Position numbers and translations under genes: made by a program
Shown: positions 61,102-64,000 of the stretch, piece after piece
How positions within the stretch are numbered: position 1 is the first letter of the stretch
Layout: each line of letters opens with the position of its first letter
DNA from: a virus
Virus record (IMG/VR): IMGVR_UViG_3300020049_009119
DNA: 64,000 bases
Strand: one strand, 5' to 3'
Notes under the pieces: model-generated
What the model was told of the DNA's origin: nothing
The model's input: only the letters and a program-made list of their open reading frames with translations
The model's database searches: none

Positions 61102-64000
61102 TTATACCGCCACTCCTTTCGCCTTCTTCTTGCTGTTAAACCTCTCATTGATCAGCACGCTGGCCTCGCCCGCACTGATCCCCTCAGCAAACCGAATCCG
61201 CATCCGCGTCATCAGCGCAATTTGTTTCTCACTGGCGGGCTTCCCTTCCCAGGCTTTGCCGAATAAAAGCGACTTGGCGAATGCTTCCGCCGCCGCCCTG
61301 CATTCCCCTTCCGTCGCACAAATCGCCCGAAAACTCTGCCCATCCGTGGCAATCCAGTTGTCGTCGGCCATGGGGCGGACGGTGATGGTGTGGTTGCGGA
61401 TGGTGAGAGTGGAGCGGGAGTTGGTGGAGGATTGCCAATGGAACGCGGGAGGGGCTTTCTTCGCGGGTTGCGGCAATTCCACCCCGCTGATCAAACTCAC
61501 CCTTCTCGCCTCAAACTCCGCCTCAATCCGCTCCCGCTCTTCCTGCTCAGCCGCCGCAGCCGCGCGTTCGCGCTCGCCAGCCGCAGTCAGATCAAGCAAT
61601 CCTTCGCGTTCCCGGAGTGGCTTTTCCTTGCCAGCCAATGACGCCAGGTTGACGAGCTTGTGGCGCTTCGTCACGCCCACCAAATCCATCACCAGGAAGT
61701 TTGGCTTGCTACTGGCGGCGATGGCGGCAAGGCGTTCTTCCGCTGTTTCCAGCCCTTCGATAACCCCATCCAGCACTCGCGTTCCACGTCCCAGGGTTTG
61801 CAGGTAGCGGCTTTTACTGGCCGTGAGCGTTCCAATCAGCAGGCACTCAGTGGTCGGCGAATTCCAGCCGGTATTGAGACACGCAACGTTCACCAGCACC
61901 TGCAATTGACCAGATTCATAATCCAGCAACTTCTTCCGCCGCTCGCCCTTGTCGGTCTTCCCGTCAATCGCCGCTGCGCGAATGCCGCCCGCGCGCAGAT
62001 GGTCGGCAAGCTCCTTTGCCATCTCCACACGCGGCACAAACATGGCAGTCTTCAAATGTCCGGCGTGCGTGCGCCATTGCTCGGTAATGGCCTCTTTCCA
62101 GTTGTCGGCACGGCGAATGAATTCAGCCACTTCGTTCTGATCGAGGTCGCCGCCGCGAGAATGAATATTTGTGAAGTCTGCGCCCTTCAATGAGAACTGG
62201 AGCGAAACCGGCTCACATAGCCAGCCCTCGCGAATACCGTCAATAAGGCTCATTTGGGCATCGGGCAGAAGTTCGTCAAACACTTCATCGAGGCCGCGAT
62301 TGTCCAATCTGAACGGAGTTGCACTGAGGCCCACGATGAGCGCATCGGGGCTTGCAACGTGATCAATAACCGCCTTGAACGCATCAAGGTTGAGGTGGCA
62401 GTTATGGACTAAGATTCCATTGGCAAAGTAGTTGTGGTGTTCTTCAACTCCGAAATTGTAGACATGACCATCTGGACACACTTGCTCAAATCGTCCGTCA
62501 CTTCCTGGTTCCAGAATCTCAATACTTTCCACCCTAACGCATTCAAGATTTCCGTTTTCCGGCGATCCAGAAACTTCCATTTCTTCAGCTTGTGCGTCTG
62601 GCCGTCTACTTCGATAGCAAGCTTCAATTCCTCGTTTCCAATATCCACCTTGTAGCAGTGAGGAAGGGACGGGAAGCGCCCCTTCACTGGCGCGGTGACA
62701 ATCACTGTTTCCATTGGCCAGCCAAGCGCTTCGGCTAGCGCTATCTGCTGTGGAGTAGGCTGGCCATTGCCGCCGCGTCCCAGAAACGTGCGCCCTTTCA
62801 TCGCTTTCACCATCTTGTCTATATTGGCAGGGTCGCGCATTGGATTGTTGGTAAGCATATTTTGCCGCCAGCGGTTGGATGTCCAGACCGCTTTGCACTT
62901 GTCCGAGCAATAAACGCGGCCCTTGCGAGCCTGCTGAAGCAATTTCGAGCCAGTCCCTGTCACCAAGGTTTCGCATACAACGCAATTCTGCGAAACCACT
63001 TTTTGCCGCTTCGATAAGAAGCTGATTCGGCTGCACTGTTTCGAGCAGAGTGGAGTCATTATCGAGTTCCATGTTTTCGGAGTAAAAGTACTGCCGCAGA
63101 TGGCGCAGATTTTCGGCTTGATTGGGTAAGCCTTCTGCTTCACTTGACTGGCTGAAAACGTGGTCTCCATGTCGAAGAGTGATGGCTGGAACATACTCAG
63201 ATACTGCCTTTGAATATATGGGATGATTTGGCGTGCAAACGATTCGCTTGCCAGTCGCTAAAACGATTTCGACTAATATTGACGCAGGTTTCCGCATTGT
63301 CTCAGTAACCTTGCGTCTTGTTATTTGATGCTTGGAGTGGCTGTAACAGTTGACCCAATCGCCAACTTTAATCTGCTCTATCGGCCTGCCATCAATGAGC
63401 GTCCCGGCTGGGAAGCATTCGTCCACGATCACCGTCTGAAACGATCCCGGCGCAAACATCGCCAGCCGGTTCTTCTTTCGGATCGTATGAAGGCTGGCAA
63501 TGACGATCCGTGCATTTTTCTGATTCAGCGACGCCTTCACAATGCCAACCGGAATGCCGGGATTTTCCGCCTGCACCGCCTTGGCGTTTTGAAAGACCAC
63601 TTCATCAATCGGCGCGAGGAAGAGCGCGCGGCCAAGATGTGTGCGGCGCTTGATTAGATTGGCCGCGAGGTAGGTTTTGCCCAGCCCGGTTGCCTGCTCA
63701 ACTATTGGCCGTTTCACGCCGCGCGCGGATGCGGCTTCGATGGCATCCAGGGCCTTGAGTTGGTACGGGCGGGGCGTTTTTGCCGCTGGTGCGACATTGG
63801 CCCTGAAGTCCTGTAGGCGATTCCCTTTCGCCCCATTACATCCCGCACAAAGCAATTGCAGATTCCACAATTCGCTCGCCCCGCCCTGCGCAACCGGCGC
63901 AATATGATCAATCTGCATCTTCCCCATTGCGCCGCATCGGGCGCACCGCTCACCGAACTGCGTCACCAAGGCTCCGTAGAAAAAGCCGTAGTTGTCGGCC
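61102..64000 (-). CDS. HNH-fused superfamily 2 (DExH) helicase containing an intein; 5' end beyond the window
   Basis: Frame open to window edge; HNH (CARC...IDHI...LCAGCN); QATGLGKT; DE-intein-CH; GLSATPFRLD; LNTGWN; YLQTLGRGTR. Confidence 0.9.
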   Translation of the reverse strand, partial: ADNYGFFYGALVTQFGERCARCGAMGKMQIDHIAPVAQGGASELWNLQLLCAGCNGAKGNRLQDFRANVAPAAKTPRPYQLKALDAIEAASARGVKRPIVEQATGLGKTYLAANLIKRRTHLGRALFLAPIDEVVFQNAKAVQAENPGIPVGIVKASLNQKNARIVIASLHTIRKKNRLAMFAPGSFQTVIVDECFPAGTLIDGRPIEQIKVGDWVNCYSHSKHQITRRKVTETMRKPASILVEIVLATGKRIVCTPNHPIYSKAVSEYVPAITLRHGDHVFSQSSEAEGLPNQAENLRHLRQYFYSENMELDNDSTLLETVQPNQLLIEAAKSGFAELRCMRNLGDRDWLEIASAGSQGPRLLLGQVQSGLDIQPLAAKYAYQQSNARPCQYRQDGESDERAHVSGTRRQWPAYSTADSASRSAWLANGNSDCHRASEGALPVPSSLLQGGYWKRGIEACYRSRRPDAQAEEMEVSGSPENGNLECVRVESIEILEPGSDGRFEQVCPDGHVYNFGVEEHHNYFANGILVHNCHLNLDAFKAVIDHVASPDALIVGLSATPFRLDNRGLDEVFDELLPDAQMSLIDGIREGWLCEPVSLQFSLKGADFTNIHSRGGDLDQNEVAEFIRRADNWKEAITEQWRTHAGHLKTAMFVPRVEMAKELADHLRAGGIRAAAIDGKTDKGERRKKLLDYESGQLQVLVNVACLNTGWNSPTTECLLIGTLTASKSRYLQTLGRGTRVLDGVIEGLETAEERLAAIAASSKPNFLVMDLVGVTKRHKLVNLASLAGKEKPLREREGLLDLTAAGERERAAAAAEQEERERIEAEFEARRVSLISGVELPQPAKKAPPAFHWQSSTNSRSTLTIRNHTITVRPMADDNWIATDGQSFRAICATEGECRAAAEAFAKSLLFGKAWEGKPASEKQIALMTRMRIRFAEGISAGEASVLINERFNSKKKAKGVAV
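62401..63417 (-). mobile_element. Intein (339 aa) inserted in the helicase DExH motif
   Basis: Block A CFPAGTLI, block B CTPNHPIY, blocks F/G VYNFGVEEHHNYFANGILVHN followed by Cys+1. Confidence 0.93.
62409..63194 (-). CDS. Zinc-finger + Vsr/DUF559-like endonuclease overprinted in +1 frame inside the intein
   Basis: CAIC..CSKQC and CVVC..YCSDKC; YKVDIG...LAIEVDGQTH...D..K..IL..LGWKVLRFWNQEV. Confidence 0.88.
   Translation of the reverse strand: MFQPSLFDMETTFSASQVKQKAYPIKPKICAICGSTFTPKTWNSIMTPLCSKQCSRISFLSKRQKVVSQNCVVCETLVTGTGSKLLQQARKGRVYCSDKCKAVWTSNRWRQNMLTNNPMRDPANIDKMVKAMKGRTFLGRGGNGQPTPQQIALAEALGWPMETVIVTAPVKGRFPSLPHCYKVDIGNEELKLAIEVDGQTHKLKKWKFLDRRKTEILNALGWKVLRFWNQEVTDDLSKCVQMVMSTISELKNTTTTLPMES

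Follow-up and report, generated by a model that had tools for sequence, protein, structure and literature searches.

A predicted intein in a phage-type SF2 helicase gene with a Vsr/DUF559-like endonuclease gene overprinted in the +1 frame

Introduction

Contiguous inteins with an out-of-frame or antisense endonuclease have a published precedent (Gorbalenya, 1998, as cited in bioRxiv 10.1101/2025.01.02.630785 and 10.64898/2026.09.14.751524). In the cyanobacterial dnaX intein a LAGLIDADG gene occupies another frame, and omega, the ratio of nonsynonymous to synonymous substitution rates (dN/dS), is low in the endonuclease frame and high in the host frame (Phillips, DeSimone and Gogarten, bioRxiv 10.64898/2026.09.14.751524). 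Actinobacteriophage inteins contain antisense LAGLIDADG genes, antisense Vsr-like genes and same-strand endonuclease VII-like genes (bioRxiv 10.1101/2025.01.02.630785). Vsr-like genes have also been described between the halves of split inteins in fractured genes, with the statement that no enzymes of this kind were known from inteins (Dassa et al., 2009; PMC2677866). The subject of this report is a 64,000-nucleotide stretch of viral DNA (IMG/VR record IMGVR_UViG_3300020049_009119; the window), in which a contiguous intein, located in motif II of a phage-type superfamily 2 (SF2) helicase, contains a putative Vsr/DUF559-type homing endonuclease gene on the same strand, shifted by +1 relative to the helicase frame.

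The element of the window shares with the dnaX intein its contiguity, a same-strand out-of-frame endonuclease between the splicing blocks, a read-through that is predicted to be disordered and the same pattern of selection. The dnaX endonuclease is, however, a LAGLIDADG enzyme in a frame called +2 of cyanobacterial dnaX, whereas the nuclease of the window combines zinc fingers with a DUF559/Vsr domain and resides at motif II of SF2 helicases in phages and prophages. The actinobacteriophage inteins are likewise phage inteins with an endonuclease coded outside the intein frame. Their Vsr-like genes are antisense, the inteins interrupt genes for polymerase, capsid, terminase and thymidylate synthase, and the layouts are called rare; in contrast, the Vsr-like gene of the window is on the same strand, in a helicase, which is the normal condition in a large family. 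The fractured genes have a Vsr-like gene between the intein's N- and C-terminal parts, its 3' end overlapping the downstream intein coding region, as here, but the host is split into two open reading frames (ORFs) with a split intein, whereas the host frame of the window is continuous through the nuclease gene. The ShiLan insertion (PMC11855218) also has an out-of-frame endonuclease ORF inside an insertion that is open in the host frame, although the nuclease is of the HNH type and the insertion has no splicing domain. The nuclease itself is predicted to have the Vsr-like fold, with the E/D/H/D composite motif, of I-Bth0305I, of the EDxHD family (Taylor et al., 2011; PMC3239194), which is its best Foldseek match. 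I-Bth0305I comes from a group I intron and has NUMOD and helix-turn-helix modules, whereas the nuclease of the window has two Cys4 fingers and is nearer in sequence to DUF559 (profile match of 3e-12 for the DUF559 structure 3hrl versus 0.05 for I-Bth0305I).

A literature search covering inteins with DUF559, overprinting and CP-T1 returned no description of helicase inteins with an overprinted Vsr/DUF559 gene on the same strand. The overall arrangement is known from publications, and the same-strand DUF559/Vsr nuclease in helicase inteins is a new version of it. The broader novelty implied by an earlier note on this DNA, which was made from the sequence alone, is not supported, in view of these precedents and of the wide distribution of the element's family.

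The intein and its host helicase

The features of the host gene and of the intein are as follows.

61102-63999, minus strand: host helicase gene, a phage-type SF2 helicase with ResIII, Helicase_C and an N-terminal HNH domain; extends past the end of the window
62401-63417, minus strand: class-1 intein, contiguous and 339 codons long, read in the helicase frame and inserted after E and before C of motif II (VIVDE/CH)
63148-63417, minus strand: predicted N-terminal splicing (Hint) part, intein residues 1-90; AlphaFold pLDDT (predicted local distance difference test) score 96-98
62551-63147, minus strand: helicase-frame read-through of the nuclease gene, residues 91-289; open, pLDDT 42-66, no confident fold
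62401-62550, minus strand: predicted C-terminal splicing part with blocks F and G (VYNF..HNYFANGILVHN), residues 290-339; pLDDT 90-97, conserved in relatives

The helicase ORF (61102 to beyond 63999) stays open across 62401-63417, and the intein comprises residues 185-523 of its 955 codons. The intein sequence begins with CFPAGT immediately after VIVDE and ends with ILVHN immediately before CHLN. Pfam matches in the helicase frame are to HNH (N-terminal), ResIII/DEAD, Helicase_C and Intein_splicing, the last of which is split across a long gap (PF14890, intein residues 23-339; 45.2 bits against a cutoff of 35.8); for the in-frame middle of the intein there is no family match. The expected splicing residues are present, namely C1, T62 and H65 of block B, the terminal H338-N339 and a Cys at the +1 position, with C1, H65 and N339 invariant across 54 intein relatives. 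Judged by profile and catalytic residues, the insert is a class-1 intein, and it is predicted to splice. Only the two ends of the intein (residues 1-90 and 290-339) are confident in an AlphaFold model built from a 54-sequence alignment (pLDDT 90-98). The GC content of the intein is 49.9%, compared with 58.5% for the exteins and 57.2% for the window, which places it in the lowest 0.6% of 1017-nt windows. Identification as a fractured gene or split intein was considered and rejected, since a single open frame crosses the entire intein.

A protein of 984 residues identical to the host helicase is on record (P0121). The HNH domain fused to the N-terminus of the helicase (63817-63945, minus strand; Pfam E-value of 4e-11) is distinct from the intein-borne nuclease.

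The overprinted nuclease gene

The nuclease frame contains the following features.

62409-63194, minus strand: overprinted putative homing endonuclease gene, 261 codons long and shifted +1 from the helicase frame; DUF559 match
63033-63107, minus strand: first Cys4 zinc finger, C30/C33/C50/C54; Cys columns conserved in alignment A1
62895-62984, minus strand: second Cys4 zinc finger, C71/C74/C96/C100; resembles FCS/YacG-type fingers
62445-62717, minus strand: predicted Vsr/DUF559-type catalytic domain, residues ~160-250; invariant D184, E195, D197, H201 and D210

The ORF starts at around intein residue 74-75, just past block B, and ends at a TAG inside the Leu-Val codons of block G, 8 nt short of the end of the intein. 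It matches DUF559 (PF04480) with 51.6 bits against a cutoff of 20.6 (E-value of 1e-13). The five catalytic-domain residues are invariant across 28 nuclease sequences and lie within the stretch that aligns with 3hrl and 3r3p, while the eight Cys residues of the two Cys4 groups are conserved across the nuclease alignment; all of the invariant zinc-finger and catalytic residues are present in the window's copy. The N-terminal part of the nuclease gives weak profile matches to FCS and YacG-type zinc fingers. An AlphaFold model of the nuclease frame, built from the 28-sequence alignment, has a mean pLDDT of 87.5, and its top matches in a Foldseek search of the PDB are 3r3p (the catalytic domain of I-Bth0305I), 3hrl (DUF559) and 1vsr (Vsr), with probabilities of up to 1.0. 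On this evidence the +1 ORF is classed as a DUF559/Vsr-like endonuclease of the EDxHD type, with predicted activity.

The earlier note had described a contiguous intein at 62401-63417 with splicing in the helicase frame and a Vsr/DUF559 nuclease at 62409-63194 in the +1 frame, stopping 8 nt before the intein end, in a segment more AT-rich than the genome. The coordinates of the helicase ORF, the intein and the nested ORF all hold, Pfam recognizes both frames and the base composition agrees.

Chance and assembly error

The nested layout was compared with chance by shuffling the synonymous codons of the nuclease gene 5000 times and counting stops in the helicase frame. Around ten such stops are expected over the nuclease gene and none is observed; none of the 5000 shuffles was free of stops. 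The third frame across the gene has 20 stops, matching expectation. The claim that the overlap is not fortuitous is therefore upheld.

The possibility of compensating indels, which had been raised as a check, was addressed with independent assemblies. One contig, assembled from another run, covers 62320-63502 in full with two substitutions and without gaps, and further independent metagenome contigs cover portions of the region with zero indels.

Relatives of the element

A scan of viral sequences with the nuclease alignment returned 277 relatives, and the layout was examined in the best 80. In all 80 the nuclease ORF is nested within an ORF of 600-2200 codons, and the offset of the host frame from the nuclease frame is plus two throughout. 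A corresponding scan of prokaryotes used one genome per species; 67 of the 80 loci examined show the same nesting and come from Chloroflexota, Proteobacteria, Verrucomicrobiota, Planctomycetota, Firmicutes, the candidate phyla radiation and one archaeon. The protein collection holds 146 nuclease homologues, many of which end in ...TTTT.P.ES, a one-base-shifted reading of the block G motif HNYF.NG. The entire intein, middle included, is matched by more than 100 helicases at 30-37% identity, and an in-frame DUF559 domain (PF04480) is found in none of 120 helicase matches.

The intein junctions are retained in the relatives (..DE/CFPAGT on the N side and VYNLEVE..HNYFANGILV[HS]N/C on the C side), and a few insertion points lie two to three residues downstream (DExH/ or DExHx/). 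The host proteins span several SF2 families: ResIII/DEAD, SNF2 and XPD-like. Eight loci were omitted from the intein alignment (A2) because the automatic call of the C-terminal boundary was wrong (a spurious KN/T). Cultured phages that match the nuclease include Vibrio phage CP-T1 (gp10), phage 24, Rostov M3, Pseudomonas phage MR14 (gp44) and around 30 Vibrio lentus phages. The CP-T1 (L087) and MR14 (L088) loci were examined and have the nuclease ORF nested as in the window; the annotation beneath the cultured-phage matches is only helicase, P-loop NTPase or coil-containing protein. The element of the window is a member of a large, unannotated family of well over a hundred loci and is common rather than unique.

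Three side observations concern individual relatives. In a locus with an SNF2-type host (L046:161-4189) there is a LAGLIDADG_3 match upstream of the intein with the overprinted nuclease, probably reflecting a second, canonical intein. A subgroup (L036, L145, L146, L151-L155 and L159) ends in ..HPS[FY]SVNG.LVHN/S(S/G)ILK, with Ser at the +1 position, and represents a different host family or site. A Dehalococcoidia genome (L163:238-3330) has a DUF559 domain in frame within a 1031-codon open stretch, which is either an in-frame fusion or an unrelated DUF559 protein.

Selection on the two frames

dN/dS was determined for nine pairs of relative loci, with no locus shared between pairs. The ratio is 0.08-0.30 in the nuclease frame, below 1 as the earlier note had predicted for the +1 frame, 0.7-1.9 in the helicase frame over the same DNA and 0.6-3.4 in the third frame. 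Substitutions are distributed 246/237/518 over the first, second and third nuclease codon positions. Across 67 unique loci the host frame contains no stop, where around ten per locus are expected. The nuclease sequence is under purifying selection, while the overlapped helicase frame is near neutral and free of stops and is therefore selected only to stay open.

The intein-less allele

The insertion site is flanked by two segments that are identical in an allele without the intein.

63418-63453, minus strand: N-extein flank of the insertion site, with GAC GAA (Asp-Glu of motif II) at its end; same sequence over ~39 nt in the intein-less allele
62359-62400, minus strand: C-extein flank of the insertion site, with TGC CAC (Cys-His of motif II) at its start; same sequence over ~39 nt in the intein-less allele

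The intein-less allele that had been predicted (...GACGAA/TGCCAC...) exists in two metagenomes of separate studies, one from freshwater (X1) and one from wastewater (X3), in which contigs join 62397 to 63415 and skip exactly 1017 nt. The junction is ambiguous by 3 nt because the intein and the C-extein both begin with TGC. The flanks of this allele diverge from the window by ~10%, yet the ~39 nt to each side of the junction show zero differences. Possible reasons for this identity are a conserved recognition site, constraint on motif II at the level of codons, or a conversion tract. Two properties of homing endonucleases are seen here: the gene is located inside an intein at helicase motif II, and the unit shows a precise presence/absence polymorphism.

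Initiation of nuclease translation

In the relatives, an ATG precedes the first CxxC by a few codons and is located at intein residue 45-116, mostly at 75-100. In most of them the nuclease frame has a stop 0-6 codons upstream of this ATG, and in several an AGGAG or AGGAGG lies 6-9 nt ahead of it. Because of these upstream stops and Shine-Dalgarno-like motifs, the pattern in the relatives favours independent internal initiation over frameshifting. Of the two modes that the earlier note had offered, weak internal initiation is thus the one favoured and +1 frameshifting appears unlikely. In the window itself, the 21 codons of the nuclease frame that lie upstream of ATG 63194 are free of stops.

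Origin of the nuclease

A free-standing gene (P0001) codes for the closest homologue of the nuclease, at 52% identity. The gene occupies L001:425-1327, next to a helicase gene at L001:1324-2916 (also in L002-L006), and its stop codon overlaps the start of the helicase gene (ATGA). The helicase beside it is uninterrupted, has DEAH at motif II and is of the same type as the extein of the window, to which it is 31% identical over 569 residues. Such a free-standing closest homologue fits the published idea that inteins of this sort originate by entry of a free-standing endonuclease gene into a mini-intein, or by its departure from one.

Nuclease and Hint distances are correlated (Spearman coefficient of 0.55; Mantel p of ~0.002), and nucleases that are 55-60% identical reside in exteins that are 10-15% identical. 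These distance comparisons are weak evidence, since some of the tblastn matches cover only the catalytic domain, which inflates the identity. It is conceivable, but rather doubtful, that overprinting is the obligate ancestral state of a single large, probably monophyletic family combining Hint with a zinc-finger/DUF559 nuclease, always in the +1 frame with its stop in block G, which spread across the ResIII/DEAD, SNF2 and XPD-like helicases of phages, bacteria and archaea, and that the overlap is functional. If this were true, the overlap could couple translation of the nuclease to that of the host gene and could make it hard to lose the nuclease gene while keeping splicing.

Discussion

The reading that we favour, with a probability of roughly 0.85, is that of a composite selfish element inserted in motif II (DE/CH) of a phage SF2 helicase and consisting of an intein and an overprinted homing endonuclease. 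Translation of the helicase frame would give a precursor in which the two Hint parts (intein residues 1-90 and 290-339) are joined by an unstructured read-through linker of ~200 residues, and the class-1 intein would then excise itself, restoring the helicase. The +1 gene, initiated separately on the same strand, would give a 261-residue endonuclease in which the two Cys4 zinc fingers presumably recognize DNA and the Vsr/DUF559 (EDxHD-like) domain would be catalytic. This enzyme would cut intein-less helicase alleles at DE/CH, and repair from the intein-bearing copy would move intein and nuclease together; because splicing and the nuclease are coded by the same DNA unit, the two would move as one. 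Splicing, DNA cleavage, homing and the mode of nuclease translation are all steps that we infer.

Several observations weigh against this reading. Selection was measured on relatives, a close but non-identical copy of the window's intein being lacking. The Foldseek E-values are weak (6.5e-3 to 0.14), with no PDB match below 0.001. Given its ~10% divergent flanks, the intein-less allele is a case of presence/absence among relatives and not a homing event. The remaining points concern expression. ATG 63194 is preceded only by a weak AAGG 12 nt upstream and by no strong Shine-Dalgarno sequence, as the earlier note had remarked, and the start is uncertain (ATG 63194, ATG 63170 or a GTG further in). 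A promoter and terminator scan of 62300-63999 found no promoter-like site upstream of ATG 63194; the one promoter-like site in this region lies downstream of the nuclease start, and shuffled sequences give as many. RNA folding around the nuclease start is not significant (z = -1.0). Among the listed runs that contain the stretch, none is recorded as RNA; one (X7) is labelled RNA-Seq, is available as contigs only and was judged to be probably DNA.

The weak ribosome-binding site of the window's copy, together with the finding that none of the listed runs is recorded as RNA, would also suit a decaying element, in which a formerly in-frame endonuclease was disabled by frameshifts, so that the +1 ORF is a relic and the intein is de facto a mini-intein with a junk linker. 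We regard this as improbable: no in-frame version was found among the 120 helicase matches, none of which has PF04480, purifying selection on the nuclease frame is strong in the relatives, and the window's ORF is of full length, retains its zinc-finger and catalytic residues and folds confidently. The same weak site and the 21 open codons upstream of ATG 63194 could be taken to indicate that the nuclease is made by +1 ribosomal frameshifting from the helicase frame, as a fusion of the N-extein, the N-terminal part of the intein and the nuclease. The stops just ahead of the ATG in most relatives and the AGGAG or AGGAGG motifs in several argue against such a fusion, as does the window itself, where neither a slippery motif nor a significant RNA structure was found; frameshifting is accordingly given little credence.

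A nuclease that merely resides in the intein and has some other role, such as phage-phage competition or degradation of host DNA, is about as unlikely. DUF559 proteins are mostly uncharacterized and the closest homologue stands free beside an uninterrupted helicase gene, both of which would suit this proposal; against it stand the strict tie of the nuclease to intein interiors at one conserved type of site in unrelated SF2 helicases, the precise presence or absence of the whole unit and a modelled fold that is nearest to a proven homing enzyme, I-Bth0305I. Two compensating indels, introduced in sequencing or assembly, that shifted an in-frame endonuclease domain out of frame are a general possibility for a metagenome-type record such as that of the window. 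This artefact is ruled out, its residual probability being negligible, by the gapless independent contig across the whole intein and the indel-free partial ones, by the identical frame offset in 80/80 viral and 67/80 prokaryotic-genome loci and by the shuffle test, which speaks equally against chance openness.

Recent preprints call inteins with out-of-frame endonucleases rare, whereas in the family described here this layout is the rule and extends over hundreds of loci, several helicase families and many phyla, and annotation pipelines miss the nested nuclease gene every time. Because there are cultured carriers (MR14, the Vibrio lentus phages and CP-T1) and a natural intein-less allele, splicing, internal initiation and homing are directly testable. 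The family also offers a clean natural case of long dual coding (~0.8 kb) in which selection acts on the sequence of one frame and only on the openness of the other. Since the nearest relative of the nuclease is free-standing beside an uninterrupted helicase gene, the element lends support to the view that inteins become mobile through invasion by a free-standing endonuclease gene.

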